Below, piece after piece: positions 1,808-29,121 of a DNA stretch of 32,000 nt. The stretch's first letter is position 1. Each line of letters begins with the position of its first letter. The position numbers and the translations under genes were made by a program. Location of the stretch: the NCBI GenBank assembly GCA_044221185.1, contig JBGAPP010000016.1, positions 46,652 through 78,651 on the forward strand, given 5' to 3'. Origin of the DNA: Chthoniobacteraceae bacterium. Lineage in GTDB: Bacteria > Verrucomicrobiota > Verrucomicrobiia > Chthoniobacterales > Chthoniobacteraceae. The notes under the pieces were generated by a model, which saw only the letters and a program-made list of their open reading frames with translations, was not told the origin of the DNA and did no database searches.

Positions 1808-2956
1808 ATGAAATCCTCCCGCTCCTGCATCGCGCTGCTCGCCGTGCTGCTGATGGTGGGTGTAGCTCGCGCGGAACGGCCGCAGAGTGAGGTGCCGCCG
1901 GAGATGCGGCTCGAAGCACGGCCCTCGGGCGCTCCGGAGCCTGCGGACAATCCCTCGACTCCGGAAAAGGTGGCGCTCGGCCGACTATTGTTTTTCGACC
2001 CGATCCTGTCCGCCACGCAAACGGTCGCGTGCGCGACGTGCCATCATCCGAAATTCGCGTGGGCCGATGCGCGCGCGACTCCGCTCGGCGTCGGGGCGAG
2101 CGGGCTTGGCCCCGCGCGCATTCTCGATGGAAAAGCGGCCGTCGCACCGCTCATGCGGAATGTGCCATCGCTGCTGAACGTCGGCTTCAACGGCATCGTC
2201 GCAGGAAAGAGGCCCGACGCAAAATCCGCACCAATGTTTTGGGACGCACGTGAGCAAGGCCTCGAAGCGCAGGCGCTGCACCCGCTTCGCTCCCGCGACG
2301 AAATGCGCGGGGACGCCTGCGTGGAGGCCGATGCCATTGAATCCGCTGCGACACGCGTGCGGAGCATCGCGGAATACCGCTCGCTCTTCGCGAAGGCGTT
2401 TCCCGGTTCGCAGGGTGATGGGGTGAGTGCGGACAATCTCGCCAAGGCCGTCGCCGCATTTGAGCGCTCGCTCGTCGCAGCAGATTCTCCGTTCGACCGC
2501 CATCAGCGCGGCGTGGGTCCGCCGCTCACTGCGGCGCAGGAGCACGGACTGCAAATTTTCCAGAGCGCCGGCTGCATCCATTGCCACGGTGGGCCGATGT
2601 TTTCGGACTTCAAGCTGCACTTCATCGGCGTGAGCGACTCCACACCGGGCGGACGCCGCGAATTCCGCACGCCAACACTGCGCAATCTCCGCCACACCGC
2701 GCCCTTCATGCACAACGGCTCGCTGCGCTCCCTCGACGACGTGCTCCTCTTCTACGAGCAGCTCTCCGACGCTGTGAGCGAGACGCTCGACGGCGGCGAC
2801 GCCGCGCATCCACCGCTCGACCCGCTGCTGAAGCACCTCAACTTGGGCGCCGAGGAATTCCCAGACCTCAAGGTGTTCCTCGAAATGCTCAACGACGACG
2901 GCTACGACAAAACCGCGCCGCCGCACGTGCCGAGCGGCCTTCCAGTTCCCCGATGA
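1808..2956 (+). CDS. Di-heme cytochrome c peroxidase (CCP/MauG family)
   Basis: Two CxxCH heme motifs (VACATCHHP and AGCIHCHGGP). Also FWDAREQGLEAQA, FRTPTLRNL and APFMHNGS, typical of bacterial CCP. Start chosen at MKSSRSCIALLAVLLMVGVARA (signal peptide) inside track ORF 1778..2956. Confidence 0.85.
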   Translation: MKSSRSCIALLAVLLMVGVARAERPQSEVPPEMRLEARPSGAPEPADNPSTPEKVALGRLLFFDPILSATQTVACATCHHPKFAWADARATPLGVGASGLGPARILDGKAAVAPLMRNVPSLLNVGFNGIVAGKRPDAKSAPMFWDAREQGLEAQALHPLRSRDEMRGDACVEADAIESAATRVRSIAEYRSLFAKAFPGSQGDGVSADNLAKAVAAFERSLVAADSPFDRHQRGVGPPLTAAQEHGLQIFQSAGCIHCHGGPMFSDFKLHFIGVSDSTPGGRREFRTPTLRNLRHTAPFMHNGSLRSLDDVLLFYEQLSDAVSETLDGGDAAHPPLDPLLKHLNLGAEEFPDLKVFLEMLNDDGYDKTAPPHVPSGLPVPR

Positions 2957-5900
2957 AAACCCCGCCCGCTTCACTCAGCATCCTGTCCGCGACCCTGCTC
3001 GTCGGGGCATCCGCATCCGCGCAGACCGTTCCAGCGCAGCGTCCGCGCACGCGCCCGGCATCCGCGCTCACGGGCCTCGCGGAGTGGGAGAAAGGCGAGG
3101 AGTTGCTGAAGCGCATCAAGGTCCCGCCCGCGCCGGTGCTGTCGGCTGAGGAGGAGATGAAGACTTTCAAAATGGCGCCGGGCTACCGCGTCGAACTCGT
3201 CGCCGCCGAGCCGCTCATGCACAACCCGATCTTCTTCGAGATCGATCCCGACGGCCGGCTGTGGGTCGTCGAGTATCAGGGCTACATGCGCGACCTCGCG
3301 GGAACGGGCGAGGGCGATCCGATCTGCCGCGTAGTCGTGCTCGAGGACACCGACGGTGACGGACGCATGGACCGGAGCGCCGTCTTCCTCGACAAGCTCG
3401 TGATGCCGCGCTCGTTCGCCTTTGTGAAAGGCGGCCTGCTGTTGCAGGAGCCGCCGAAGCTGTGGTTCTGCGAGGACTTCGACGGCGACCTTCACTGCGA
3501 CCGGAAAACCGAGGTCGGCAACCTCGGTCTCGCCGGAAATCCGCAGCACACCGCGAACGGCCTGCGCTACGGCATCGACAACTGGCTGCACAACGCCGAC
3601 TGGCCGCGCAAGCACCGCTGGCGCGACGGCAAGCTCATCGGCGAAAACACGGCCCACCGAGGGCAGTTCGGCGTCACCTTCGATGAGACCGGCCGCTTTT
3701 TCTCCTGCTATGAAAACCGCGCGCTCACTGCGGACCTGATCCCTGCGGATTATCTGATGCGGAATGCGAACTTGAAGAAGGTGTTCGAGCGCGGCGGTGG
3801 CGACCGCAGCGCGTTCGGCGTGAATGTGGATGCCGGCGCGCGTGCGCAGGAGGTCTTTCCGATTCGCGTCACGCCCGCTGTCACGCTTGGCGCGTTGGAA
3901 CTGCGCGACGACGGACGGCTGCGCACCTACACGATCGCGAGCGGCGTCTGCTGCTACGACGGCCACCAGTTCCCCGACGATGCGCGCGGAAATTTCATCG
4001 TGCCCGAATCCGGCGGCCACCTGCTCGGCCGGCTTGTGCTGCCGCCCGGCATCGCGCCGCTGGCCACGCGCTTTTATCCGCCGGAGCAGGAGCTGCTCGC
4101 TTCGACGGACGAGCGCTTCCGCCCCGTGAATGCGCGTGTCGGCCCCGACGGCGCGCTATACGTCGCCGACCTGTGTCACGGCATCATCGAGCATGTGATC
4201 TTCATGGTGCCGTGGCTCGCGAAGCAAATTCAGGAGCGCCATCTCGACGACGGAAATGATCGCGGCCGCATCTGGCGTGTCGTCGCGGAAGGCCGCCCGA
4301 TCGACCGCAGGCCGCCGCGCCTCTCGACGGCATCGAGTGCGGAACTCGTGAAGACGCTCGCGCACCCCAACGGCTGGCACCGCATCACCGCGCAGCGCCT
4401 GCTCGTCGAGCGCGGCGACGCGGGCGCCGTGCCCGCGCTTCGAGAGGCGGCGAGGAATGCCGTGCCCCTCGGCAGGCTCCACGCGCTGTGGGCGCTCGAC
4501 GGAATGGATGCGCTGGATGCCGATGCGCGGCTCGCCGCGCTGAAGGATCCGGACGAGCGCGTGCGGTCCGCTGCGGTCCGCCTCGCCGAGCGCGATCCGA
4601 GCCCGGCCACTCTTGCCGCCCTTGCGCCGCTCGTCGCAGATGCGAGCGAACCGGTGCGGCTGCAACTTGCTCTCACGCTCGGCGCCTTTCGCGAACCGCA
4701 GGCCGTCGCGCTGCTGGAAACACTGCTTACACAGAACACGCATCCGCTTTTCCGCACTGCCGCGGCGACAGGGCTCGGGGGGCGCGAACTGGAGTTTCTC
4801 GCCGGCTGGCTGCAGAACCACGGTGAGAGTGAGGTGACGCCCGCGCTCGTGGCGCTGCTGGCGAAATGCGTGCTCGAGGAATCCGAGCCGGCGCGCATCG
4901 CGTCGTTGATCGACCTGCTTTCGAAAACCCCCGCAGCGCATCCCGCAGCGCGCGACGCGCTTCTCGCGGTCTTTGCCGAAACCCGGCCGCCGAAGCCGTT
5001 TGCGCTCGCAGGCGAACCCCGCGTGCTGACCTCGCTGCTTCGCGATCCGAAATCGGCCCCGCTCGCGCAGCGCGCGCTCAGCGTCGTCACGTGGCCGGGT
5101 GCCGATGCGGCGAAGACACTCACGCCCGGCGCGCCGCCGCTCACCGCCGAGCAGCAGCGCCTCGTGGATGCGGGGCGCGAAGTCTATTCGACGATTTGCG
5201 CTGCATGCCATCAGCCGCACGGTGGCGGCGGTGCGGGAGTGGCGCCTCCGCTCGCGGGCAGCGACTGGGTGAGCGGCCCGCCGAAGCGGCTGGCGCGTGT
5301 TGTCCTCCACGGCCTCTACGGGCCCATCGAGGTGAACGGCCAACGCTGGAATCTCCACATGCCCGGCCTCGGCGCGTCCGGGATTTTGAGCGACGAGAAA
5401 ATCGCGGGTGTGCTCAGCTACGTGCGCCGCGCGTGGGGCAACACCTCCGCGCCTGTCGAGCCATCCATCATCACGAGCGTGCGCAAGGAAACCGCGGCCC
5501 GCACATTCCCGTGGCGCGCGGAGGAGCTTGGTTTTCAAAATGCCGCGCAAGCCGACGCCGGAGCGATCAAGCCCGCGGCGAACGGTGAACTCCTCCTGCC
5601 CGCGCGCCTTGCCACGACCTACGGCCAGCGGCTTGCCTACCGTCCGTCGCTCGACATTCTCGGCCCATGGCGCGTGAAGGACGACGTTGCGGGCTGGAGC
5701 GTCGAAGTTTCCGGCGACGGCAGCTACGAGGTGTTCGTGACGCTCGCCGCCGATTCTGCGTCCGCGAGCAATCGCTTCCGCATCGAGACCGAGGTCGACA
5801 GCACGACGGCGGCGGTGCAGTCGAGCGGGGCATTCGACCGTTTCCATGAGTTCTCCGCCGGCCGCGTCCCGCTGCGTGCGGGTGTGAACCGCATCCTCAT

Positions 5901-5970
5901 GCGCGTCGACGGCCCGCTGCGCAATGAACTCGCCGACGTGCGCGCGCTGCGGCTCGTGCCGGTGAAGTGA
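2953..5970 (+). CDS. PVC-type heme-binding CxxCH protein (membrane-bound dehydrogenase-like beta-propeller + HEAT repeats + cytochrome c domain + C-terminal beta-sandwich)
   Basis: Start MKTPPASLSILSATLLVGASASAQ (signal peptide); its ATG overlaps the CCP stop (ATGA at 2953-2956). FKMAPGYRVELVAAEPLMHNPI is typical of the Planctomycetes/Verrucomicrobia dehydrogenase-domain family. HEAT-like repeats are present (HPNGWHRITAQRLLVERGD..., DPDERVRSAAVRLA). CxxCH (CAACH) lies at 5197-5211. The first ~124 aa of track ORF 2581..5970 overlap CCP and are not coding. Confidence 0.8.
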   Translation: MKTPPASLSILSATLLVGASASAQTVPAQRPRTRPASALTGLAEWEKGEELLKRIKVPPAPVLSAEEEMKTFKMAPGYRVELVAAEPLMHNPIFFEIDPDGRLWVVEYQGYMRDLAGTGEGDPICRVVVLEDTDGDGRMDRSAVFLDKLVMPRSFAFVKGGLLLQEPPKLWFCEDFDGDLHCDRKTEVGNLGLAGNPQHTANGLRYGIDNWLHNADWPRKHRWRDGKLIGENTAHRGQFGVTFDETGRFFSCYENRALTADLIPADYLMRNANLKKVFERGGGDRSAFGVNVDAGARAQEVFPIRVTPAVTLGALELRDDGRLRTYTIASGVCCYDGHQFPDDARGNFIVPESGGHLLGRLVLPPGIAPLATRFYPPEQELLASTDERFRPVNARVGPDGALYVADLCHGIIEHVIFMVPWLAKQIQERHLDDGNDRGRIWRVVAEGRPIDRRPPRLSTASSAELVKTLAHPNGWHRITAQRLLVERGDAGAVPALREAARNAVPLGRLHALWALDGMDALDADARLAALKDPDERVRSAAVRLAERDPSPATLAALAPLVADASEPVRLQLALTLGAFREPQAVALLETLLTQNTHPLFRTAAATGLGGRELEFLAGWLQNHGESEVTPALVALLAKCVLEESEPARIASLIDLLSKTPAAHPAARDALLAVFAETRPPKPFALAGEPRVLTSLLRDPKSAPLAQRALSVVTWPGADAAKTLTPGAPPLTAEQQRLVDAGREVYSTICAACHQPHGGGGAGVAPPLAGSDWVSGPPKRLARVVLHGLYGPIEVNGQRWNLHMPGLGASGILSDEKIAGVLSYVRRAWGNTSAPVEPSIITSVRKETAARTFPWRAEELGFQNAAQADAGAIKPAANGELLLPARLATTYGQRLAYRPSLDILGPWRVKDDVAGWSVEVSGDGSYEVFVTLAADSASASNRFRIETEVDSTTAAVQSSGAFDRFHEFSAGRVPLRAGVNRILMRVDGPLRNELADVRALRLVPVK

Positions 5971-7451: not shown

Positions 7452-8234
7452 ATGAACACCCCGAAGCCAGCCGCGATCCTCAAAGACAAGCTCCTCAAGG
7501 GCCACGCCGTTTACGGCACGCTCATCCAGCACGCGGTCGTGCCGGCGATCGTGGATTTCATTCCGGAAAACTCGGTGGACTTCGTGATCGTGAGCGCGGA
7601 GCACAACGCCCTCGACATCGCCGACTTCATGCCGCTGCGCTACGCGCTCGCCGCAAAGGGAATCGCGTGCCTCGCGCGGACGCACAGCCGCGACGCCGAC
7701 GACGTGGCGAAGGTCTGCGACTCATTCGACGGCGTCGTCATCCCGTATGCCGAGGATGTGGAGATGATCAGGCGGCTCGCTGCCGCCGCCGTTTTCCGCC
7801 CGCTCAAGGGCGTCGCGCTCGAGCGTGTGATCCAGGAAGGCAAGTGGCCCAGCGAGAAGACGCGCCATTACGTGGCCGAGCAGAAATGCGCCGACACGAT
7901 GTTCATCCCGATGATCGAGTCGGTCCGTGCGGTCGAGAACCTCGAAGCCATCTGCGCGATTCCCGGTGTCAGCGCGCTCTTCATCGGACCCAACGACATG
8001 ACGACGAACATGGGCATCCCGAACGAATACGACAGTCCGGAGCTCATCGCGGTCATCCAGCGCATCATCGACACGGCCGACAAGCGCCACATCCCCGCGG
8101 GCTGCTGGTTCGGGAAGCCTGAGCAGGCTCTGCGCACGATCCGGCAAGGCGCGCGCTTCGTGGTGTATTCAAACGACAGCAGCATGCTGAAGGATGCGAT
8201 GATTGCGGCGTTCACGCAGCTCAGGAGGGGGTAG
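7452..8234 (+). CDS. HpcH/HpaI-family aldolase (2-keto-3-deoxy-acid aldolase-like)
   Basis: 260-aa ORF with DFVIVSAEHNALD, FIPMIESVRAVENLEAI and LFIGPNDMTTNMG motifs, characteristic of HpcH/HpaI aldolase/citrate-lyase-beta-like TIM barrels. Confidence 0.8.
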   Translation: MNTPKPAAILKDKLLKGHAVYGTLIQHAVVPAIVDFIPENSVDFVIVSAEHNALDIADFMPLRYALAAKGIACLARTHSRDADDVAKVCDSFDGVVIPYAEDVEMIRRLAAAAVFRPLKGVALERVIQEGKWPSEKTRHYVAEQKCADTMFIPMIESVRAVENLEAICAIPGVSALFIGPNDMTTNMGIPNEYDSPELIAVIQRIIDTADKRHIPAGCWFGKPEQALRTIRQGARFVVYSNDSSMLKDAMIAAFTQLRRG

Positions 8235-8378
8235 CGCGGTCTGCGATCGTCCAGCGTCCGGCCGAGACTTGGAATTCGGACGCGGCCCGGGCGGTGGCCA
8301 TTTTTTAACCGGCTTGCCAAGCCCGCGCGGCTTCATGCAGATGCACGCCTGCCACCCCATGCTCTCGCCCGCGTCCGC

Positions 8379-8383
8379 GGAGG
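8379..8383 (+). promoter_or_regulatory. Shine-Dalgarno-like GGAGG ahead of the RyR-operon first gene
   Basis: GGAGG sits 9 nt upstream of the ATG at 8393. Confidence 0.45.
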
Positions 8384-8392
8384 TTCATCACC

Positions 8393-11300
8393 ATGCCATC
8401 GAAGCCCCTTCACTTTTCCGGAAAAATCGTCGTGCGGAAACAGGACGGCCGACGGCTTGTCATCCAGCGTTCGCGCAAGTCCCGCGGGAATCCGGGCCAG
8501 TGGGAGTTTCCCGGAGGCAAGGCGGATGAGGGCGAGCACGTGGATGCGGCCCTGCTTCGCGAGGTCGGGGAGGAGACCGGGATCGCGATCCACCTTGGAA
8601 AAATCGTCGGCCACGCGCACTCCGAACTGACGGACAAGACGATCGCCTATCTCTTCTTCGACGCACAGTTCGTCTCCGGGGAGGTGAGGCTGAGCGACGA
8701 GCACGAGGACTCGCGCTGGGTGTCCCTGCCGGAGCTGCTGGAGATGAACGCGCGGAAGGAAATCGCGGAGCAGTTCCGGCCGTTCGTCGAGGCCTACTGC
8801 CGCGCGCGGGGCTATGGACAGATGAAGAGGGAGGATTCCCCCGCGCCCCGCAGTGCGGCGCGCATTGATGAGTTCGTGGCCCGGTATCAGGCGGAGCACC
8901 CCGTGTATGAATCCTTCGCCGCAACCCTGGAAAAAAACCTGAGGGACGCGATGAGGCAGATCTGCCCGGAGGCGATCGTGCAGTGCCGGCCGAAGAGCGT
9001 GGCGAGCTTTGCGGAGAAGATCCTGCGGAAAAACAAATACAACGACCCGCTCGCGGATATCACCGACTTGTGCGGGGCGCGCATCATCACGCAGATCAAA
9101 CCCGAGGTGGACGCCGTGTGCGAGTTCATCAGGACGAGCTTCGCCATCGATGAGGCCAACAGCGTGGATACCCTGACCCGCCTGCGCGCGAGCGAGTTCG
9201 GCTACCGGTCGGTGCACTTCGTCGTGCGGTTCGATGCCGAAGGCTTCCGGCAGGCACCGCACCGGCTTTTGCGCCCGAAGGCCGGAACGAAGGGCGAGAT
9301 GAGGGCCGAGATTCAGGTGCGCACCATTCTCCAGCACGCGTGGGCGGCGATCGGCCACGACCGTCTCTACAAAAGCGGTTTCGCGGTGCCGGACGTTCAC
9401 CAGCGCGAGGCCGGGCGCGTGGCGGCCGTGCTTGAGAGCGCGGATGACGCATTCGGGCGCATCGTGGACGGAATGGAAAACTACCGGACCAATTCCGGCG
9501 CGATGCCGAAGACCGACGGGGAGTTTGAAAGCGAGCAGGCGATTTGCAGGACGATCCTCAGCCATCAGGCAGGGGACTCTGCCGCCTCGGAGTCGTCCGT
9601 TCACAGGCTCGCACGCCTCTCGATGCTGCGGAACCAATGGGCCGACGCGGTGCGCGTTCTCCGGGAATTCCCCGGCACGGGCAAATCGAGCAGCCTCGAG
9701 TGCTGCCTCGGGATTTCCCTCTGCGAACTCCACCGCGACGAGCCGTCGCACCCGGCATTTGCGGAAGGCCGCGAGGCGCTGCGGAGAGCCATCCAGCTCG
9801 ATGGGGGCAACATCGAGGCGCTCCTGCAGTTTGCCGAAACCGCGTCCGACGAGACTGAGAAGCTCGGGCATTTCCAGGCCGCGTTCGTCGCGAATCCCGG
9901 CGATCCCGAGGTGCTGAGCGCCTATGTCCGCCACAAGCTCGGGGTCGAGAAGAGCGACTCGTTCATTCCCCTGCTGCGGCCCGCGCTGGAGCAGGCGATT
10001 GCGACGTGCAGGCTTCATGTGCAGGCCGGCGTCAATCTTCCGGAGGCGCTGCTTCGCATCGCGGGTTTTCACCTGCTGCTGGGTCCCGTCCGCGACGCGG
10101 CCGGGCGCGAGGACTGCGCGCCCGCCCTGACGGCGTGCGCCCAGGCCGCCGCGCTCGCCAAGGCGCCGCTGCTGCTGAAAACCGCAAGCGAGGCAGTCGA
10201 GAAGCTCCGCTCGATGCAGCCCGGTCGCTGCGATTTGAAGGCAGTCTCCCGGTTTCTGCTGGCGGCCTGGCGGGCGAGATTCCCGAAAGACGCGCCGTTG
10301 GAACGCCTGACCCGCATCGCCACGCACGACGAAGCCGGCCAGATGTGCAGGATCGAAGGTCCGGTGGTCATCATCGCGGGCGGATGCGATCCGGCCCATG
10401 CCGGGCGGGTTGCGGGCTACCGGGCCCTGCTGCACGAGTGCCTTGCGGATTTCAAAGGCACGATCGTCTCCGGCGGAACCCGCGAGGGCATCAGCGGGCT
10501 GGTGGCCGAACTCGGCGAGAGGCACCCCGGGCGGCTCCGCACGGTCGGCTACCTCCCCGCCATGCTTCCGAGTGATGGAACCGCGACCCGCGATGGCCGC
10601 TACCACGACCTTCGGCGCACCGACGGGGACGCGGGATTCTCCGTGCTCGAACCGATCCAGAACTGGATCGATCTCCTGGCATCGGGAATCGCGCCGGAGG
10701 ATGTGCGCGTGATCGGAATCAACGGCGGGGCCATCGCGGCCCTCGAATACCGCATGGCGTGGGCGCTCGGCGCGCGCGTGGGCATCGTGCGCGGCAGCGG
10801 CCGCGAGGCCGATCGGATCGAACACGAAATCAACGGGCAGGAATACCCCGGCATGCTGCTGCTCCCGGAGGACGCGATGACGCTGCGCGCATTCATCCAC
10901 ACAGGCGACCGCCGCGGGTCGCCGTTCACCGCGGAGCAGGCGGAGCGCCTCGCGCGCCTGGCCCACGCGCGCTACCTCGACCAGAACCGCCACAGGCTGG
11001 GCGACCGCACGATGCGCGATTGGGATTTCCTCGGCGAGGATCTGAAGAGGTCGAACCTCGACCAAATCACCTACATGACGCAGATCCTGCGCGCCGTCGG
11101 CTGCGGCGTGGCGACGGCGGGTTCCGGTGCGGCACCTGGCAAATTCAGCAGTGAGGAATCCGAAACCATGGGGCGGATGGAGCACGGGCGGTGGAATGTC
11201 GAGCGCTTGAGCCAGGGGTGGCGCTGGGGTGAGAAACGTGAGCCCGAGAAGCGTCTCAGTCCGTTTCTGGTCTCGTGGAATGATCTCGACGATGGGGTGA

Positions 11301-11428
11301 AGGGCTGGGATCGCAGCGTTGTGGACACTTTCCAAGATCTGCTGGCCGAAATAGGAATGCAGATCGTCCGCGAGCCGGCGACGGCGGCGCGCCCAGACAC
11401 CGAGAATTCCGAAAGAACCCATCCATGA
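8393..11428 (+). CDS. Multidomain Nudix hydrolase + RelA/SpoT-family nucleotide pyrophosphokinase + helical/TPR-like + SLOG (LOG/TRPM-type Rossmannoid) + RyR-domain protein
   Basis: Perfect Nudix box at aa 42-64 (GKADEGEHVDAALLREVGEETGI, nt 8516-8584). All five RelA/SpoT synthetase motifs fall within aa 199-327 (nt 8987-9373): RPKSVASFAEK, DLCGARII, GYRSVH, EIQVRT, HDRLYK. A helical region spans aa ~380-650. A SLOG-like region spans aa ~655-835: PVVIIAGGCD, IVSGGTREGISG, GINGGAIAALEY, VRGSGREADRI. The RyR-type tail spans aa ~845-990, including MEHGRWNVERLSQGWRWGEKREPEKRLSPFLVSWNDLDDGVKGWDRSVV. Confidence 0.85.
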   Translation: MPSKPLHFSGKIVVRKQDGRRLVIQRSRKSRGNPGQWEFPGGKADEGEHVDAALLREVGEETGIAIHLGKIVGHAHSELTDKTIAYLFFDAQFVSGEVRLSDEHEDSRWVSLPELLEMNARKEIAEQFRPFVEAYCRARGYGQMKREDSPAPRSAARIDEFVARYQAEHPVYESFAATLEKNLRDAMRQICPEAIVQCRPKSVASFAEKILRKNKYNDPLADITDLCGARIITQIKPEVDAVCEFIRTSFAIDEANSVDTLTRLRASEFGYRSVHFVVRFDAEGFRQAPHRLLRPKAGTKGEMRAEIQVRTILQHAWAAIGHDRLYKSGFAVPDVHQREAGRVAAVLESADDAFGRIVDGMENYRTNSGAMPKTDGEFESEQAICRTILSHQAGDSAASESSVHRLARLSMLRNQWADAVRVLREFPGTGKSSSLECCLGISLCELHRDEPSHPAFAEGREALRRAIQLDGGNIEALLQFAETASDETEKLGHFQAAFVANPGDPEVLSAYVRHKLGVEKSDSFIPLLRPALEQAIATCRLHVQAGVNLPEALLRIAGFHLLLGPVRDAAGREDCAPALTACAQAAALAKAPLLLKTASEAVEKLRSMQPGRCDLKAVSRFLLAAWRARFPKDAPLERLTRIATHDEAGQMCRIEGPVVIIAGGCDPAHAGRVAGYRALLHECLADFKGTIVSGGTREGISGLVAELGERHPGRLRTVGYLPAMLPSDGTATRDGRYHDLRRTDGDAGFSVLEPIQNWIDLLASGIAPEDVRVIGINGGAIAALEYRMAWALGARVGIVRGSGREADRIEHEINGQEYPGMLLLPEDAMTLRAFIHTGDRRGSPFTAEQAERLARLAHARYLDQNRHRLGDRTMRDWDFLGEDLKRSNLDQITYMTQILRAVGCGVATAGSGAAPGKFSSEESETMGRMEHGRWNVERLSQGWRWGEKREPEKRLSPFLVSWNDLDDGVKGWDRSVVDTFQDLLAEIGMQIVREPATAARPDTENSERTHP

Positions 11429-11712
11429 GCTACCAGCCGGCACCGATTGACACCTCCGCGATTTCCCTTCCAGCAGATCTTCACGCCTTGACGGAGTATC
11501 TCGCGGAAAACGCGCACGACCTGTGGGCCGCGCAGCGGATTTCCGAGGGCTGGACATTCGGTGCCGAGCGCGACGACGCGGCGAAGAAGCACCCATGCCT
11601 CGTTTCCTACGCTGACCTGCCCGATTCGGAGAAAGTCTATGACCGCCAGACCGCGATGGGCACGCTGAAGGCCATCCTCGCGATGGGCTATCGCATCGAG
11701 CGGGGTTCCTGA
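11425..11712 (+). CDS. Stand-alone RyR (ryanodine-receptor Ryr) domain protein
   Basis: 95 aa: LTEYLAENAHDLWAAQRISEGWTFGAERDDAAKKHPCLVSYADLPDSEKVYDRQTAMGTLKAILAMGYRI closely follows the RyR repeat consensus as I remember it. The ATG overlaps the upstream stop (ATGA, 11425-11428). Confidence 0.85.
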   Translation: MSYQPAPIDTSAISLPADLHALTEYLAENAHDLWAAQRISEGWTFGAERDDAAKKHPCLVSYADLPDSEKVYDRQTAMGTLKAILAMGYRIERGS

Positions 11713-11730
11713 GAGAAAGGATGAGCTGAC

Positions 11731-13722
11731 ATGAGCGCGGGCACACAGGACCACATGCACATGCCGCTCCGGCGGTGGTGCATCATTCTCGGCTTGGGAA
11801 TTGCAACAGTGGTGTGCGGGACCGTCGGGCTGGTCCTCTACGGACGCGCGCACGGGCACCATGCCGAGGGTGCGATGGAGATTCCGCAGGCATTTTACCA
11901 CTCGCTGCAGATGCTCCTGCTGCACACTCCGCACCTCGAGCACGGGCCGAACTGGGGCATTCTCGCCGGCGAGTTTTTCGGCGCGGCGACCGCGCTCCTC
12001 ACCGTGGTGTTCCTGCTGCACCACAGGGCGCGCCGCGAACTGCAGCGGTTCTGGCTCCGGTTTGCGGAGGAGCACATCGTGGTCTGCGGAATCGGCGACC
12101 GCGGCCTCGAAATCGTCCGCAGGTTCGGCCCCGCGCTGGATCTCCCCCTGCACGCTCGCTGGCTCGGGGCTCTGAAGCGGCTCGGTCGGCGGCTTACCGC
12201 CGTCGTGCAGCGGGTGGTGCGCGTGGCGTTGTGGCGCGAGGGCGCGCAGGACCGCAACGCGGCCCGCGATTTTGCGAATGCCTGCGCAGGCCGCGGTGGC
12301 TGCGGTGGCTGCGGCAATCGCCAACTCGACGCCCGTGAGATCGTCGTCATCGATCCCGCGCCGGATGAATCCGTGCGCGAGAAGCTCGAGCAGGCCGGCG
12401 TGTGCGTGCTGAAGGGCGACGCCACCGAGAAGGAAATCCTCCTCCGCGCCCGCATCGCCCGGGCGTCGCAAATCTTCGTCATCACCGGCTCGGATCAGAC
12501 GAACCTCGCAATCGCCGCCGCAGCGTTTCATGCATCCAAGGATGGCAGGCCGCCCGAGTGCCGCGTTCACCTCTCGAACGCAAACCTCCGCCAGGCTTTC
12601 GACGCGTCCCTCGACGGCACCGAGGATCATCCGGCGGCCCGTCCGCACTTCTTCGATGTGTTCGACCGGGCCGCGCGACGCGTCTTCCGAGACCATCCGC
12701 TCGACGGCGCGGGCATCCGGAGGACCGACACCACGCAGGTGCATCTCGTCGTCATCGGCTTTGGAAAAATGGGGCGCAGCCTCGCGCTGAACGCGGCGCG
12801 CCTCGGGCATTTCGCAAACGGAAAGCCGCTCCGCATTTCCATCGTGGACCGCCACGGCGCTGCGAAGGAGGAGACCTTCCGCTTCCGGCACCCCGCGTTC
12901 GGCGAGCAGGAGTTCTGCGTCCTCGATTTTCACCAGCTCGACGCCGCCTCCGCAGCGTGCGCACGGCAAATGCAGGCGTGGGCGGACGAGCCGGACACGA
13001 GGCTGCACATCTGCCTCTGCCTGGATGACGACATGCAGAGCCTCGAACTCGCGCTGCGCTTCCAGAAAACCCTCGGGAGGACCGACTCCCTCCTCGTCCG
13101 AATCCGCGCGCGCCCGTCCATCAGGGACATCATCAAAGTGGCCGCGAAGGAGCCGCAGATCGCCGTCTTCTCCACCGCCGATGAAACCGGCGACGACGAG
13201 GATCTCGACACCATCGCCCGCGCGATTCACAGCGCCTTTGTGAAGTCCATGGTGCCCGACCCCGCGGAGTATGCGGCGAAGGTCGCGAAGAATTATGCGC
13301 TCCGTCCGTGGAACGAGCTCCGCGACGACTTCCGGGACTCGAACCGCCAGCAGGCGGACCACCTTTTCATCAAGCTGCGCGCCCTCGGATACGACCTCGC
13401 GGATCGAGACAAAATCCCCGAGGGCGCGACCCCTGCCGACGATGTGAAAGCCGCGGACTTCACGCCGCTCGCGCCTCTCGAGCACACGCGCTGGAACGCC
13501 GAGCGCTGGCTCGCCGGCTGGCGCCTCCCGCCGCCCGGCCCCCGCGACGAAGACACGGACAAGAAAAACCGCGTTTCGCCTTACCTCGTCAAATGGGAGG
13601 ACGTTCCGCGGGAAATCCAGCGTTACGACGTGCAGGCAGTGGAAAACATCCCCGTGCTCATCCGCGATTTTCTTCCCGGCAAGGTCATCATCCACAGGGC
13701 TGGCACAAAGCACGGCGCCTGA
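11731..13722 (+). CDS. Membrane protein: 2 TM helices + two TrkA-N/RCK-like Rossmann domains + C-terminal RyR module (ion-channel-like candidate effector)
   Basis: TM1 is WCIILGLGIATVVCGTVGLVLY (nt ~11776-11841) and TM2 is WGILAGEFFGAATALLTVVFLLH (nt ~11953-12021). The first GxGxxG is IVVCGIGDRG (12088-12105), followed by VVIDPAPDE...VLKGDATEKEILLRARIARASQIFVITGSDQTNL, typical of TrkA_N. The second GxGxxG is LVVIGFGKMGRS. The tail has PWNELRDDFRDSNRQQADHLFIKLRALGY plus LEHTRWNAERWLAGWR...KKNRVSPYLVKWEDVPREIQRYDVQAV (RyR-like). Alternative starts exist at M9/M11. Confidence 0.8.
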   Translation: MSAGTQDHMHMPLRRWCIILGLGIATVVCGTVGLVLYGRAHGHHAEGAMEIPQAFYHSLQMLLLHTPHLEHGPNWGILAGEFFGAATALLTVVFLLHHRARRELQRFWLRFAEEHIVVCGIGDRGLEIVRRFGPALDLPLHARWLGALKRLGRRLTAVVQRVVRVALWREGAQDRNAARDFANACAGRGGCGGCGNRQLDAREIVVIDPAPDESVREKLEQAGVCVLKGDATEKEILLRARIARASQIFVITGSDQTNLAIAAAAFHASKDGRPPECRVHLSNANLRQAFDASLDGTEDHPAARPHFFDVFDRAARRVFRDHPLDGAGIRRTDTTQVHLVVIGFGKMGRSLALNAARLGHFANGKPLRISIVDRHGAAKEETFRFRHPAFGEQEFCVLDFHQLDAASAACARQMQAWADEPDTRLHICLCLDDDMQSLELALRFQKTLGRTDSLLVRIRARPSIRDIIKVAAKEPQIAVFSTADETGDDEDLDTIARAIHSAFVKSMVPDPAEYAAKVAKNYALRPWNELRDDFRDSNRQQADHLFIKLRALGYDLADRDKIPEGATPADDVKAADFTPLAPLEHTRWNAERWLAGWRLPPPGPRDEDTDKKNRVSPYLVKWEDVPREIQRYDVQAVENIPVLIRDFLPGKVIIHRAGTKHGA

Positions 13723-13781
13723 ATTCCAGCACGTGGACGACCGCTCCTGCATACTCCGACCACCTGTTGACGCCGTGAAGA

Positions 13782-13811
13782 TGGAGCGGGTAGCGGGAAT
13801 CGAACCCGCAT
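13782..13811. repeat. attL: 30-bp direct repeat identical to the 3' end of tRNA-Gly
   Basis: TGGAGCGGGTAGCGGGAATCGAACCCGCAT at 13782-13811 is identical to 29048-29077. The flanking bases differ on both sides (a/g before, t/g after). Confidence 0.9.
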
Positions 13812-13850
13812 TTCGATTCACCCTTGGGAATCGAACCATTTTTCCCTAGA

Positions 13851-13907
13851 GTGAGAACACGCTGGAAAGGTCTGGACGGGCTTGGGTGTTCTCACTAATG
13901 TTCTCAC
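13851..13907. repeat. Three copies of GTTCTCAC (one inverted), candidate integrase arm-type sites, left end
   Basis: GTGAGAAC at 13851-13858 (inverted), GTTCTCAC at 13888-13895 and 13900-13907. The same 8-mer occurs twice near the right end. Confidence 0.35.
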
Positions 13908-13911
13908 CATT

Positions 13912-15057
13912 ATGCCGAGCCTACACAAACGCTCTCGTTCCCCATTTTGGGTTGCCGCCTACTGCGCTGCGGATGGCAGACGCCTCAAAAAATCCACGCG
14001 CACCACAGAACGTGCCCTTGCCATGAAACTTGCGCTCGAATGGGAGCAAGCGGCCAAGGCGGGGCGTGCGGGGCGTCTTGTCGAAAGCCAGTGCCGACGC
14101 GTGCTTTCCGAAATCCACGAACACGCGAACGGCGAGCCGTTGCATTTTCATTCGGCGGGCGCGTGGTTGGATGAATGGCTTGCGGGGAAGAAAGGCGTCA
14201 CCACTGAACGGACGCTTCTGAAATACACGCAATATGTCGCCGAGTTTCGCGAGAGCTTGGGCGAGAGCGCCAGCAAGCCGTTGGCTTCGATTTCACCGCG
14301 CCACGTCCGCGCATTCCGGGATTCGCTCGCGCGCGCCGGACATTCCCCGGTCACGGTCAACGGCGCACTCAAGATATTGTCCTCGCCCTTCAATGCCGCG
14401 CAGCGTTTGGGATATATCGCCGTGAACCCATGCGCGGGCGTCGAACTTCTGCGCGACGATGCCGACGCAGAGAAAGACGTTTTCGCGCCGGAACAGGTTC
14501 GTTCGCTTGTGGCGGCGGCGGAGGGCGATTGGAAGGGCGTGATCCTTGCGGGCTACTTCACCGGCCTGCGCCTGCGCGACGTGACGGAACTGCGTTGGGA
14601 CGCATTGGATTTCAAAACCGGCTTGCTTCGTGTCAAGACGCGCAAGACGGGCGCGGTTGTTGTGCTCCCGCTTCACAAGGAGTTTGCCGCATGGCTGCAA
14701 GAGCAAACGCGGGGCATCGGCAAAGCCCCGATCTTCCCCGCGCTTGCTGGCAAGACAGGTGGGGGCAAGAGCGGCCTTTCCATGAAGTTTCGCGGCATCA
14801 TGGAGCGGGCGGGCATCGTGGGGCGCGTGCTTCGCCAGCGTGCCGAGAACAGCGCGGGTCGCACGCAAAGCAGCCTCTCGTTTCACTCCCTCCGCCATTC
14901 GTTCAACTCCGCACTCGCCAACGCGGGCGTGGCACAGGAACTCCGCCAGAGACTCACAGGACACGCGAGCGCGGCCATGAATGCGAAATACACACATCAC
15001 GAACTCGACGCCCTCCGTGCGGCTGTCGCTCTTGTGCCAAGTGTCGCGGCACAATGA
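13912..15057 (+). CDS. Tyrosine site-specific recombinase (phage-type integrase)
   Basis: MPSLHKRSRSPFWVAAYCAADGRRLKKST is an N-terminal arm-binding-like segment. Catalytic-type motifs are present: GLRLRDVTELRW (Arg), HSLRHSF (HxxR) and GHASAAMNAKYTH (Tyr). The ATG at 13912 is preferred over the TTG at 13882 used by the track. Confidence 0.9.
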   Translation: MPSLHKRSRSPFWVAAYCAADGRRLKKSTRTTERALAMKLALEWEQAAKAGRAGRLVESQCRRVLSEIHEHANGEPLHFHSAGAWLDEWLAGKKGVTTERTLLKYTQYVAEFRESLGESASKPLASISPRHVRAFRDSLARAGHSPVTVNGALKILSSPFNAAQRLGYIAVNPCAGVELLRDDADAEKDVFAPEQVRSLVAAAEGDWKGVILAGYFTGLRLRDVTELRWDALDFKTGLLRVKTRKTGAVVVLPLHKEFAAWLQEQTRGIGKAPIFPALAGKTGGGKSGLSMKFRGIMERAGIVGRVLRQRAENSAGRTQSSLSFHSLRHSFNSALANAGVAQELRQRLTGHASAAMNAKYTHHELDALRAAVALVPSVAAQ

Positions 15058-17084: not shown

Positions 17085-18083
17085 CTATGCAAGTGCCGGA
17101 AGGCCGTCGTCGCTGCCAGTGAGCTTGAGCCACGTCAGGCGCTTGCCGATGAAGCCCGCGATGGCCTTGAGGAAGCGGCCCTTGTCGCTGTCCTTCCGCT
17201 CGTTGAAGCGGAACGCCTGCTCGTCGAGGTAGCGGAACAGGTGGAAGGGCTCCACGCTGACATACGTGCCCTTGATCGCGCGTTTCAGCAGCGACCAGAA
17301 GTTTTCAAGGCCGTTCGTGTGAACGTGTCCCTTCGCGTAGCAGACCGCGTGATCCACGACGTTGTGCGTGTATTCGTCGGAAAGGCCGGCGTAGCCCTTC
17401 AGCGCGTCCGTGTGAACCTCCGCACCCTTGAGCACGTATTGACGCACACCTTTCTGAACATCCGCTCGTTTCGTGGAGTTGATGACGCGCAGCTTCACCC
17501 GCGAAGCTTTCTCGCGCGTGCTGCGCTCCAACAATCCTTGCACGGGCGTCATGGCAATGCCGCCGGTCTTGCGGCCATACTTCGCACGCCGCTTCGCCTT
17601 CTGCTTCGCGTTCATCGTGCGCGCCCTTGCGCCGATGTAGGTTTCATCCGCCTCCACAATGCCGCCCATCTTCACCACGCTGCCGTTCTGCATCGCGTAG
17701 CGGATGCGCTGCAACATGAACCATCCCGTTTTCTGGCACACACCAAGCGCCCGCGCGATCTCGTAGCTGCTGTTCCCGTTCTTCGCGTTGGCAATCAGCC
17801 ACGTCGCCGCGATCCACTTGTCGAACTTGATGGGGCTGTCCTCGAAGATTGTGCCGAGCCGGATGGTGAACTGCTTTTTGCAGTCCTTGCACTTCCATTT
17901 CCGCCGCGTGGAAATGAAGCTGTGGCGCTCCGAGTCGCAGTGCGAGCAGCGCACAACGCCGTCAGACCAGCGCACTAATTTCATGTAGTCGAACGCGCGT
18001 TGTTCGTCGGCAAAGTAGCGCATCACTTCCTGCAACGTCTCGGGAAACTCCGCGCCGCTCTCAGTCGTGTTTTCGGTTTTCAT
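17085..18083 (-). CDS. IS1595-family transposase (N-terminal zinc ribbon + DDE domain)
   Basis: VRCSHCDSERHSFISTRRKWKCKDCKKQFTIRLGTIFEDS is the IS1595 Zn-ribbon. VEADETYIG, VHTDALKGY and TNGLENFWSLLKRAIKGTYVSV are the DDE/ISXO2-like core. Confidence 0.9.
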   Translation of the reverse strand: MKTENTTESGAEFPETLQEVMRYFADEQRAFDYMKLVRWSDGVVRCSHCDSERHSFISTRRKWKCKDCKKQFTIRLGTIFEDSPIKFDKWIAATWLIANAKNGNSSYEIARALGVCQKTGWFMLQRIRYAMQNGSVVKMGGIVEADETYIGARARTMNAKQKAKRRAKYGRKTGGIAMTPVQGLLERSTREKASRVKLRVINSTKRADVQKGVRQYVLKGAEVHTDALKGYAGLSDEYTHNVVDHAVCYAKGHVHTNGLENFWSLLKRAIKGTYVSVEPFHLFRYLDEQAFRFNERKDSDKGRFLKAIAGFIGKRLTWLKLTGSDDGLPALA

Positions 18084-18770: not shown

Positions 18771-19673
18771 ATGGTTGACACTGCGAGAAAAATCCTGACC
18801 GGCTGCGTTCTTCGCGACGATTGCCCGTTTCCTGTGGGAATTTACAAAGAAAAAGTGCGTGTTCCCGGAGGTGCGAGCACTGAGGTGGAAAAGGGCATCA
18901 AAGTTTGTGACGCACAAACCGGACTGGCAGTTTGGGGAAGTCCGCAAAATGGATTCAGCATTGAGCACTCCTTGCCGCAGTTGATCTTTCCCACAAACGG
19001 ACGCTTGCTCAAATCACAGGCGGAACTTGATGGGGCTGTCGGCGTAATGGATGCGTTTCTTGCAAAAGTCCTTTCTCCCCCGAGAACTGCGGAGTTCACG
19101 CGGGTTGATCTGTGTTGGCAGATCGCAGGGGACATCGCGCATTTCATCGCATCGCTTAGAGGGTGTAGGCACCCGCTAATTAACGGCGTGCCAGGATTTG
19201 CCGAAAACGAGTCCATCTGGTTCGGGAAAAGGAATGCGACGATGAGAGGCTGCATTTATGACAAGATGCGGGAGCTTTCCGGCAAGCCCGGCAACGTAAT
19301 CAGGATCGAATGGAGGTTGCGAAAGCGCAGATTGCGAGAGGAGTTGACCGGCAGTCTTGCGCCTGTAACTCACTTGATTTTTGATGCGTGTCGGCGCTCA
19401 TTCAGACGCCTTACGGTTGCGCTAAGTCCGAATCCGGCTGCTCTGATTCAGCAAGGCAGTGGCGCTCTCGCCGACTTCATCGCGCTCGGTGAAATGAGAG
19501 GCTGGAAAGACAATGGGCGAAGTTGTCTCGAAATATGGTCGCAACACTACGGTTCACCGCAGGCAGCCGCCCGGTTTCGCCAAAAGGTGAAGGCGGCAAA
19601 AGTCCGTTTCGGAGGGGTCAATTTCCACGAACTGCTGCCTGAGTCGCACATGCCCGACCCTGTTGAAATCTGA
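18771..19673 (+). CDS. Putative replication initiation protein (phage/plasmid gene II/X, Rep_trans-like)
   Basis: The pattern SLPQLIFPTNGRLL ... FTRVDLCWQ ... IWFGKRNATMRGCIYDK ... VIRIEWRLRKRRL matches the layout I recall for gene II/X-CRI-type replication initiators. Not verified by search. Confidence 0.5.
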   Translation: MVDTARKILTGCVLRDDCPFPVGIYKEKVRVPGGASTEVEKGIKVCDAQTGLAVWGSPQNGFSIEHSLPQLIFPTNGRLLKSQAELDGAVGVMDAFLAKVLSPPRTAEFTRVDLCWQIAGDIAHFIASLRGCRHPLINGVPGFAENESIWFGKRNATMRGCIYDKMRELSGKPGNVIRIEWRLRKRRLREELTGSLAPVTHLIFDACRRSFRRLTVALSPNPAALIQQGSGALADFIALGEMRGWKDNGRSCLEIWSQHYGSPQAAARFRQKVKAAKVRFGGVNFHELLPESHMPDPVEI

Positions 19674-20117
19674 ATGAATGCCGCCAAACCAAAACCTGTG
19701 CGCCGCGCTCGCGGGCGTCCCTCGAAATACTCGCCCAAGACCGTGAAAGCGATCTGCGCCGCCATCGCGGACGGATTGCCGAACAAATTCGCGGCGGCTA
19801 TGGGTGGCATTTCGCAGGACACTTTTTGCGATTGGCAGCGGCGTTTTCCCGAATTTTCCGAAGCCGTCGAGAGAGCTACGGCGCGCGGCGTTCATGCGCG
19901 GCTGAAAATCATCAAAGCGGCGGCGGAGGGCGGTGACGTGAAAGCCGCGCAATGGTGGCTGGAACACGTCATGCCTGAGCACTTCGCCCGCAATCGAATC
20001 GAGCTGAAGCACGACATCGCGGGACGCTTGGAGCATGAGATTGTTGTGTCGCCGCAAGCCTTGGAAGCCATCGCAGAGAGCCGGAGACGCTATGAGCTTG
20101 CCCGTGCCAACGGCTGA
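19674..20117 (+). CDS. Terminase small-subunit-like HTH protein
   Basis: RRARGRPSKYSPKTVKAICAAIADGLPNKFAAAMGGISQDTFCDWQRRFPEFSEAVERA is the typical TerS-type N-terminal HTH. The gene starts on the base after the Rep stop and overlaps the TerL start. Confidence 0.6.
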   Translation: MNAAKPKPVRRARGRPSKYSPKTVKAICAAIADGLPNKFAAAMGGISQDTFCDWQRRFPEFSEAVERATARGVHARLKIIKAAAEGGDVKAAQWWLEHVMPEHFARNRIELKHDIAGRLEHEIVVSPQALEAIAESRRRYELARANG

Positions 20118-22669: not shown

Positions 22670-22798
22670 CCGATTCGGAAAATGCGCTGGCGAGCATCGT
22701 AGTGCGCGGGAAGACCCCTGTGATGTCCGCGCCGTCTTGTGCTGGCTTGTTGTCGCGCCTTGCGCCGCTCGCATCGGCAATTCAGCCTCCGCCACTTG

Positions 22799-28986: not shown

Positions 28987-29047
28987 TTGCCGATTTCCGC
29001 GCCCTCAATCGCCCTGAAACCCTGATAAACACGGGGGTGGAGCGGGT

Positions 29048-29121
29048 AGCGGGAATCGAACCCGCATGGCCAGTTTGGAAGACTGGAACTTTACCATTAA
29101 GCTATACCCGCATTGCGGAGC
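29048..29121 (-). tRNA. tRNA-Gly: tRNA-Gly (anticodon UCC), CCA-encoded; its 3' 30 nt form attR
   Basis: The reverse complement is GCGGGTATAGCTTAATGGTAAAGTTCCAGTCTTCCAAACTGGCCATGCGGGTTCGATTCCCGCTACCCGCTCCA. It has a 7-bp acceptor stem (GCGGGTA/TACCCGC), an anticodon stem-loop CCAGT-CTTCCAA-ACTGG, a T-arm GCGGG-TTCGATT-CCCGC and a terminal CCA. Confidence 0.9.

Follow-up and report, generated by a model that had tools for sequence, protein, structure and literature searches.

RelQ and RelP (YjbM/YwaC) are ~210-aa single-domain small alarmone synthetases (SAS) of the RelA/SpoT homologue (RSH) superfamily, carrying five synthetase motifs and no HD, TGS, or ACT domains. In toxSAS toxin-antitoxin modules and the fused CapRel toxin-antitoxin defense proteins, an RSH synthetase goes with a sensor region and with a partner that neutralizes or hydrolyzes, be it a protein antitoxin or a small alarmone hydrolase; some of these systems defend against phages. 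Thoeris and CBASS pair a nucleotide-producing TIR or CD-NTase enzyme with an effector, SLOG sensing (the ThsA receptor), and signal degraders. The animal Ca2+ channel TRPM2, gated by ADP-ribose (ADPR), holds its channel and its sensors (the ADPR-binding SLOG domain MHR1/2 and the Nudix domain NUDT9-H) in one polypeptide, and RCK-gated K+ channels of the GsuK/MthK/TrkA kind are built from a pair of membrane helices flanking a short one, followed by tandem Rossmann/RCK domains. To our knowledge, the RyR (R12) domain has so far been characterized only in phage anti-Thoeris proteins and animal RyR channels. We analyzed a locus that resembles each of these in part. It lies in a 32,000-nt stretch (62.8% GC; hereafter the window) of contig JBGAPP010000016.1 from a Chthoniobacteraceae bacterium, where one gene (gene 1) joins a SAS-type RSH domain to Nudix, TPR, SLOG, and RyR domains and appears to head an operon with two further RyR-encoding genes (genes 2 and 3).

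The SAS region of gene 1 shares its five motifs, its lack of HD, TGS, and ACT domains, and its best structure matches with RelQ/RelP, but it sits in a 1011-aa multidomain protein with RyR-tagged partner genes. As in toxSAS/CapRel, a synthetase occurs with a candidate neutralizer and a sensor region; however, the similarity is weak, the candidate neutralizer is a Nudix domain, and the toxSAS/CapRel sensors are unrelated to the TPR, SLOG, and RyR domains of gene 1. The proposed logic is that of Thoeris and CBASS, and NADase-STAND genes are often adjacent in the family, but the generator is a predicted RSH pyrophosphokinase, SLOG sits on the generator and not the effector, and any defense activity is putative. 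A TRPM-type SLOG, a Nudix domain, and a channel-like protein occur together as in TRPM2, but in the window a gene of its own encodes the GsuK-type channel-like protein, the Nudix domain resembles MutT/NudG and not NUDT9, and a synthetase is added. Gene 2 is a canonical single RyR repeat with the His/Trp/His/Asp spacing of the phage protein RyDEP, and the RyR regions of genes 1 and 3 are tandem and R12-like; RyDEP is phage-encoded, whereas the window proteins are cellular, and the RyR domains of genes 1 and 3 are joined to a synthetase and a channel-like protein, respectively. Gene 3 has the membrane and RCK layout of GsuK/MthK/TrkA and differs in lacking a TVGYG filter, in an extra C-terminal RyR, and in ~70 aa inserted into its first RCK domain.

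All domains of gene 1 fall within known superfamilies, and we classify the system as a variant of nucleotide-second-messenger (conflict/stress) systems. Not described in the accessible literature are the SAS-Nudix-TPR-SLOG-RyR combination, the R12-type RyR common to co-encoded synthetase, channel-like, and AAA proteins, and the recurrent adjacency of the family to ADPR-producing NADase-STAND genes. Full-text literature searches returned no paper that joins an RSH synthetase with SLOG or RyR, although an earlier in silico mention of the architecture may exist, and the recent preprints examined on RyR-domain and DUF4062 proteins do not mention a SAS-SLOG-RyR family.

The five-part protein encoded by gene 1

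Gene 1 is a genuine five-part protein composed of SAS, Nudix, TPR, SLOG, and RyR domains, with the following features.

8381..8385 (+): Shine-Dalgarno GGAGG, 7 nt 5' of the gene 1 ATG, read from sequence
8393..11428 (+): gene 1, Nudix-SAS(RelA/SpoT)-TPR-SLOG-tandem RyR, 1011 aa (open reading frame, third-position GC, Pfam, >300 homologues)
8426..8767 (+): Nudix domain, aa 12-125, MutT/NudG type, box at 8516-8584 (Pfam, NCBIfam, PDB profile match)
8987..9376 (+): RelA/SpoT catalytic core, aa 199-328, SAS type (Pfam, alignment, structures)
9530..10342 (+): TPR/helical solenoid, aa ~380-650 (weak TPR_19 match, homologues, profile)
10355..10897 (+): SLOG domain, TRPM (LSDAT_prok) type, aa 655-835 (Pfam, AlphaFold2, Foldseek)
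10931..11374 (+): tandem RyR (R12-like), shortened repeat aa 847-909 plus canonical repeat aa 920-994 (Pfam, profile, hhalign)

The open reading frame (ORF) was uninterrupted in translation, and its GC content at the three codon positions (GC1 0.68, GC2 0.47, GC3 0.83) was typical of genes in the window. NCBI holds a protein identical to the gene 1 product, and a second copy with the same neighbors occurred on an independent Logan contig. A 1137-aa minus-strand ORF (8333-11746), antisense across all of gene 1, failed the GC3/GC2 coding screen and was discarded as a high-GC shadow ORF.

The catalytic domain of gene 1 is assigned by sequence to the SAS type of the RSH superfamily. Pfam RelA_SpoT (PF04607) matched at 64.2 bits (cut-off 27; 1.6e-17), and all five synthetase motifs were present (RxKxxxSxxxK, DxxGxR, YRSxH, ExQxRT, and HxxxYK). 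Catalytic and substrate-binding residues were invariant in a family alignment of 37 sequences with 32-56% identity: R199, K201, K209, D225, G228, R230, Y271, R272, S273, H275, and E306, together with Q308, T311, H315, H322, Y326, and K327. A profile of the synthetase region had RelQ/RelP as its closest solved structures (1e-22 to 1e-16), compared with 4e-5 for CapRel, ~1e-4 for long RelA/Rel, and 0.04 for the toxSAS FaRel2, so that close kinship to a characterized toxSAS was not found. Pfam and NCBIfam returned no HD hydrolase, TGS, or ACT match in gene 1, and the TIGR00691 spoT_relA model scored 15 bits against a cut-off of 499. Among PADLOC defense-candidate models, PDC-S33 matched the RSH region (1e-17) and PDC-S07 the Nudix region (1.6e-21).

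The Nudix box was perfect at aa 42-64 (G42-x5-E48-x7-R56-E57-V-G-E60-E61-T-G63-I64, against GX5EX7REUXEEXGU) and was kept in 18/18 Nudix-bearing members of the family alignment. Pfam NUDIX (PF00293) matched at 71.6 bits (cut-off 21.1; 8e-20). The top NCBIfam models were PRK08999, NudG, and MutT, and the Nudix part of the family profile matched PDB 3grn, "MutT related", at 5e-32, with NudG also among the best structures. No ADPRase model appeared among the 25 NCBIfam matches listed (of 26), and NAD+ diphosphatase reached just 6e-4. These matches classify the domain as a predicted NTP pyrophosphohydrolase of the MutT/NudG type and not as a TRPM2-style ADP-ribose pyrophosphatase (NUDT9). The Nudix enzymes MutT and NudG hydrolyze or edit (p)ppGpp (PMC5845004, PMC7593582), and NahA is a Nudix enzyme that edits (p)ppGpp to pGpp (PMC7584652).

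Between the synthetase and SLOG, the TPR_19 match was weak in gene 1 itself; many homologues had TPR matches in Pfam, and the family profile matched TPR structures at 4e-37 (profile positions ~360-497). The SLOG/LSDAT definition reportedly comes from a 2015 survey by Burroughs et al. in NAR. Pfam LSDAT_prok (PF18171) fell below its cut-off of 25.4 with the full protein (24.0 bits, 2.6e-5) and exceeded it with the isolated domain (29.8 bits), and the SLOG domains of 21/23 family members matched this model (best 1.5e-11). A sequence search of the SLOG profile against the PDB gave nothing significant (best E-value 0.016, LOG-like 1rcu at 0.1). The fold search succeeded where the sequence search did not, which settled the assignment. 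An AlphaFold model built from a 23-sequence alignment had a predicted local distance difference test score (pLDDT) of 92.4 and a predicted template modeling score (pTM) of 0.86, and its top Foldseek match was TRPM2 MHR1/2 (E-value 2e-7, probability 1.0). Other TRPM channels came next, and LOG enzymes were also matched, with LOG/TM1055 at 1e-6. Residues 655-835 are thus modeled as a Rossmannoid SLOG fold with glycine-rich loops. G689, G699, G779, and E785 were invariant in the family alignment, and G694, G695, T696, G775, and G778 were kept in at least 90% of members.

At the C-terminus, Pfam RyR (PF02026) matched aa 924-991 at 32.1 bits (cut-off 27.4; 1.4e-7), and the C-terminal part of the family profile matched RyR2 at 1e-26. 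The preceding residues 847-909 aligned with the canonical repeat at aa 920-994 in hhalign (probability 96%, E-value 5e-9). Because these residues repeat the canonical unit in shortened form, we describe the C-terminus as a tandem R12-like domain.

An earlier sequence-only reading of this DNA had described both the Nudix box and the RelA/SpoT motifs as apparently intact, with a helical/TPR-like linker and a SLOG-type domain behind them. Its coordinates were exact (nt 8516-8584 correspond to aa 42-64, nt 8987-9373 to R199-K327, and nt 10355-10897 to aa 655-835), and the residues it judged conserved were invariant or nearly so in the 37-member alignment. Curated family models agreed with its Nudix, RelA/SpoT, and SLOG assignments and with the intact catalytic motifs, and the linker proved to be a true TPR array. 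Its domain inventory was otherwise incomplete, since it overlooked the C-terminal RyR (aa ~847-994) and the RyR-bearing operon.

RyR-bearing partner genes

The two genes downstream of gene 1 have the following features.

11425..11712 (+): gene 2, solo RyR repeat, 95 aa, start overlapping the gene 1 stop (ATGA)
11731..13722 (+): gene 3, channel-like membrane protein, 663 aa (Pfam, 17-homologue alignment, AlphaFold2, Foldseek)
11767-12057 (+): gene 3 first transmembrane helix, short helix, and second transmembrane helix, aa 13-109
~12076-12630 and ~12736-13170 (+): gene 3 tandem Rossmann/RCK (TrkA_N) domains
13468-13647 (+): gene 3 C-terminal RyR, Pfam aa 580-639

Gene 1 is predicted to head a three-gene operon whose other two products both bear RyR domains. 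Genes 1 and 2 overlap by 4 bp, an 18-bp gap separates genes 2 and 3, and the three-gene layout is repeated on the independent Logan contig. A scan of 8100-13950 for promoters and terminators returned no promoter-like site and no convincing intergenic terminator, a result that is uninformative for the operon question.

Gene 2 matched Pfam RyR at 123 bits (6e-36), repeat 1 of animal RyR2 at 79 bits, and the Bacteroides RyR-like protein PDB 3nrt at 3.5e-32, and its homologues include 261 phage records. Over the 90 residues that align with mammalian RyR2 repeat 1, about half are identical, an unusually strong cross-kingdom conservation for a small domain. Phage RyR-domain (PF02026) proteins are dimers that bind 2'/3'cADPR, forms of cyclic ADP-ribose (cADPR) that the founding member RyDEP cleaves (PMC13232231, a May 2026 preprint). 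RyDEP binds its ligand through His75, Trp78, His100, and Asp117, residues common to the adenine-ligand pocket of animal RyR R12, and was the sole catalytic protein among nine phage RyR-domain proteins assayed: 0/8 homologues cleaved 2'/3'cADPR and 6/8 bound it (PMC13232231). In gene 2, H31, W34, H56, and D73 have a spacing identical to these ligand/catalytic residues. The gene 1 family kept H931 and D973 in 37/37 members and W934 in 35/37, and relatives of gene 3 kept the equivalent His/Trp/Asp in 17-20 of 20. In both of these families, the second pocket His, which contacts phosphate in RyDEP, is replaced by Ser or Thr while His/Trp/Asp are kept.

Gene 3 matched Pfam TrkA_N at 7e-13, and its RyR match was under the cut-off (24.8 bits, 2.7e-5); the RyR call is backed by the family alignment and by a Foldseek match to RyR3 R12. 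The AlphaFold2 model (pLDDT 81.9) shows two transmembrane helices, a pore helix, and tandem RCK domains, and Foldseek placed the GsuK channel first (E-value 2e-8), followed by the TrkA ring, MthK, Slo channels, and RyR3 R12. We also considered obligatory RyR-RyR heterodimerization of the three proteins as an assembly principle and gave it less weight, because gene 1 holds a self-complementing R12-like pair and the two-repeat RyR3 R12 domain is among the structures that the gene 3 model matches.

The putative gene 3 pore comes in two sub-types, as judged from the aligned homologues, and neither resembles a K+ filter. The motif SLQMLLLHTPH of gene 3 is also found in locus L069 and has the consensus LQMLILHTPH among aligned close relatives, and most homologues of the 80 related loci described below have SLQLFxLESG. 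The insertion in the first Rossmann/RCK domain (~70 aa; aa ~135-200, ~12130-12330) contains the Cys/Gly-rich stretch CAGRGGCGGCGN. It was found in 0/16 homologues from other loci and was present in the 91%-identical relative P0121, and model confidence in it was low (pLDDT <50 at aa 187-200).

The gene 1 family and its recurrent neighbors

More than 300 protein clusters matched gene 1, and at least 584 species-representative genomes carried homologues, nearly all of them metagenome-assembled genomes (MAGs) of uncultured lineages. The phyla include Verrucomicrobiota, Planctomycetota, Chloroflexota, Actinomycetota, Bacteroidota, Gemmatimonadota, Bathyarchaeia, Halobacteriota, and others; the closest relative among the matches listed was from a Chthoniobacteraceae MAG at 76% identity. 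Family annotations were generic only. The invariant family core is SAS-TPR-SLOG-RyR, ~830-860 aa long.

We counted neighboring genes at 80 related loci, with a flank of up to 10 kb on each side. A Nudix domain of the same type was fused to the core in 6/80 loci and encoded by a separate gene no more than 300 bp upstream or downstream in 33/80. It was therefore fused or adjacent in 39/80 loci overall, on either side of the synthetase gene. Linkage on both sides together with independent fusions favors functional coupling over accidental fusion, and such coupling of synthetase and Nudix is strongly supported by this gene arrangement. The sequence-only reading had drawn attention to the synthetase-Nudix fusion; the coupling it implied stands, and the single-polypeptide form is in the minority. 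Its further suggestion, a Nudix domain that pre-processes the substrate, is not supported as an obligatory role, since roughly half of the family members lack Nudix altogether, and for the same reason the domain is best seen as an optional accessory regulator. Two homologues (P0040 and P0078) have two tandem N-terminal Nudix domains each.

Genes encoding RyR domains also recurred beside the core. A channel-like protein resembling gene 3 was nearby in 19/80 loci, and 31/80 had at least one additional RyR-bearing protein, whether channel-like, ~900-aa AAA-RyR, or solo RyR. DUF4062 proteins, mostly DUF4062-NACHT/STAND-TPR/WD40, occurred within 6 kb in 28/80 loci, and 15/80 loci had none of these partner genes. 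DUF4062 is a TIR-like NADase that yields ADPR from NAD+, for example in Avs-type STAND proteins, and DUF4062 systems act in anti-phage defense (10.64898/2026.05.01.722283; 10.64898/2026.09.04.749371). We did not keep neighbor cluster 0 (43 loci) as one DUF4062 group, because it was heterogeneous and joined via TPR/WD40 repeats. A recount with a DUF4062-specific profile gave 30/80 loci, 14 of them with a same-strand protein no more than 1 kb away, and 20/37 DUF4062 ORFs were within 1 kb of the core gene. DUF4062-STAND genes stood directly beside the core, for example, at L007:4324-8262, L018:13178-17692, L046:4367-8719, L072:1111-4320, and L073:6600-9929.

A third class of RyR-tagged neighbor consists of ~860-940-aa proteins with a C-terminal RyR, several with a central AAA-type ATPase match and the remainder unannotated (L025:14997-17681, L032:4881-7646, L040:4541-7126, L048:5481-8180, L054:7712-10354, L058:8072-10906, L063:12584-15172, and L065:7976-10753). 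One further protein, P0135, fuses SAS-TPR directly to RCK-RCK-RyR, without membrane helices or SLOG; it is found on a single contig and may be a real fusion or an assembly artifact. A ClpB-like double-AAA ATPase (~760 aa) was near the core in 9 loci, with a YbjN-family partner in 6. These loci, which include L017, L018, L019, L021, L023, L044 (7078-9363, 9379-9975), L068, and L074, belonged mostly to MAGs of Actinomycetes, Chloroflexia, and Anaerolineaceae; Gemmatimonadota and Pirellulaceae contributed one each.

Possible roles and chromosomal setting

The gene 1 family probably relays nucleotide signals, and the module probably serves a conflict (defense-type) or stress role, as suggested by domain content and gene neighborhood. 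In the reading we favor, with about half of our confidence behind it, gene 1 is a sensor- or trigger-gated generator of an alarmone-type nucleotide signal heading a three-gene module, in which Nudix ends the signal and the RyR partners read it. From the observed domains, conservation, operon layout, and neighborhood counts we infer the biochemical steps as follows. The RelQ/RelP-like SAS, given its intact motifs, would move pyrophosphate from ATP to the 3'-OH of a purine nucleotide, and the C-terminal half of gene 1 would control its output. The TPR array may be a protein-binding or oligomerization surface, possibly for a protein trigger, and by homology SLOG and tandem RyR would be pockets for adenine-nucleotide-derived ligands of the ADPR/cADPR class. 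The MutT/NudG-type Nudix would hydrolyze or trim the product or its precursor, keeping the signal below threshold at rest and reducing self-intoxication; synthetase and Nudix together would then follow a futile-cycle or threshold logic. The signal, or the same upstream ligand, would be read by the RyR domains of both co-transcribed proteins. Of these, the solo RyR dimer (gene 2) could be a buffer or a degrading enzyme, and the GsuK-like gene 3, the likeliest output of the operon, could act at the membrane by changing ion flux or membrane potential. The mixing of this module with DUF4062 NADase-STAND sensors and AAA-RyR proteins points to a role in conflict or stress alarm.

If this reading is correct, RelA/SpoT-type synthetases would count, alongside TIR, CD-NTase, and cyclase enzymes, among the signal generators of modular systems for sensor-gated nucleotide signaling or immunity, with Nudix as the built-in terminator of a RelA/SpoT-type signal. 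The widespread bacterial and archaeal RyR (R12) domain would then read nucleotides within cells. One prokaryotic operon would unite SLOG plus Nudix of TRPM2 and R12 of RyR, the modules by which these two animal Ca2+ channels sense ligands, with a channel-like effector.

A more specific version, which we put forward tentatively and think improbable as a whole, is a two-tier relay. An ADPR-class ligand would act through SLOG/RyR on the RelQ-like pyrophosphokinase, and the product or ADPR would gate the RyR-tagged GsuK-like channel, with Nudix and solo RyR as terminator and buffer. In other genomes, the ligand could come from neighboring DUF4062 NADase-STAND sensors. Such a relay would be a prokaryotic antecedent of the animal ADPR/cADPR-responsive TRPM2 and ryanodine-receptor channel modules.

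Several observations weigh against the signal-generator reading or parts of it. Accessory modules were uncorrelated with one another across the 80 loci, which also fits mere co-location in variable or defense islands. With 15/80 loci having no partners and about half having no Nudix, the core protein must be capable of functioning on its own. No DUF4062/STAND gene occurs in the window, which leaves the proposed ADPR input without a local source, and the Ser/Thr at the second pocket His means that the RyR ligand of genes 1 and 3 may differ from cADPR. Gene 3 lacks a TVGYG K+ selectivity filter (the sequence between its membrane helices is SLQMLLLHTPHLEHG), and its pore-like motif SLQMLLLHTPH (aa ~54-76, window 11890-11960) departs from the family consensus SLQLFxLESG; any ion conduction by gene 3 is therefore putative. 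The operon also lies outside the integrated island next to it, and searches of plasmid and phage collections returned isolated SAS or Nudix domain matches and no full-length homologue.

The alternative that survives best, which we regard as unlikely, is a toxSAS-like toxin with a built-in antidote acting in abortive infection. The SAS itself would be the lethal effector, depleting ATP/GTP through (p)ppApp/(p)ppGpp or pyrophosphorylating tRNA, with Nudix as antitoxin, TPR/SLOG/RyR sensing the trigger, and genes 2 and 3 optional. The loci without any partner and the presence of the channel-like gene in just 19/80 suggest a core that can act alone, and the tight linkage of Nudix on either side is antitoxin-like. 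The PADLOC candidates matched by the RSH and Nudix regions and the Avs-like STAND genes beside the core also fit a toxin. However, the catalytic domain is RelQ/RelP-like and far from FaRel2 and CapRel, the Nudix-less half of the family keeps intact synthetase motifs, and the RyR domains common to the neighboring genes are left unexplained.

A housekeeping regulator of stress or ion homeostasis, with no phage conflict involved, is in our view quite unlikely. Gene 1 would be a (p)ppGpp/pGpp synthetase with a NahA-like Nudix, and gene 3 a cation channel tuned by NAD(H), ADPR, or ATP. The RelQ/RelP-like SAS agrees with this, as does an operon of native GC among metabolic genes and outside the mobile island. 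NahA-type editing of alarmones is established (PMC7584652), and RCK/TrkA_N domains, whose GsuK and TrkA structures gene 3 matches, classically bind NAD(H), ATP, and ADP and gate K+ transport. Yet gene 3 has no K+ filter, and in many loci Avs-like DUF4062-STAND proteins stand directly beside the core gene, with the tested DUF4062 systems being anti-phage. The modular shuffling of accessories and the patchy spread over bacterial and archaeal phyla are both typical of conflict systems.

Lastly, RyR and/or SLOG could be enzymes and not readers, carrying out stepwise processing of ADPR metabolites (glycosidase, Nudix, pyrophosphokinase) without alarmone signaling. Four nucleotide-handling domains do occur together in one protein; the RyDEP His/Asp dyad is conserved in all 37 family members and gene 2, so the RyR proteins could cleave cADPR-type glycosidic bonds; and the SLOG GGx6E motif, with E785 and G779 invariant and LOG enzymes among the structural matches, could support LOG-like base release. 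We consider this very unlikely, as six of the eight assayed phage homologues of RyDEP bind without cleavage and RyDEP alone is catalytic, the top SLOG matches are the non-catalytic TRPM MHR1/2, and the Nudix is of the NTP and not the ADPR-pyrophosphatase type.

Downstream of the operon, the window holds an integrated island that is a mobile element with defense genes. A 30-bp direct repeat (13782-13811 and 29038-29067), corresponding to the 3'-terminal part of the minus-strand tRNA-Gly(tcc) at 29038-29111, bounds this 15-kb element of lower GC (~13.8-29.07 kb). The operon ends 60 bp before the left attachment repeat, and the independent Logan contig L001 breaks off close to that point. We rejected the operon as part of the island: the left repeat comes after gene 3, and in GC content the operon matches the flanking chromosome. 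The island genes are as follows.

13882-15057: tyrosine integrase
17085-18083 (-), 18771-20117, 22739-25891, and 27969-28841: cargo comprising an IS1595-family transposase, a weak Rep_trans-like ORF, a small-terminase-like/HTH (helix-turn-helix) ORF, a 1050-aa type IIL restriction-modification enzyme of the MmeI family, and a NERD nuclease

On the other side of the operon, a gene at 2581-5970 (+) encodes a 1129-aa DUF7133-HEAT-cytochrome c protein, and nearby upstream genes encode a DMFA2_C-type amidase-like protein, a GFO/IDH/MocA oxidoreductase, and an HpcH/HpaI aldolase. These upstream genes form an ordinary metabolic context, consistent with a genome of the Verrucomicrobiota/Planctomycetota type.

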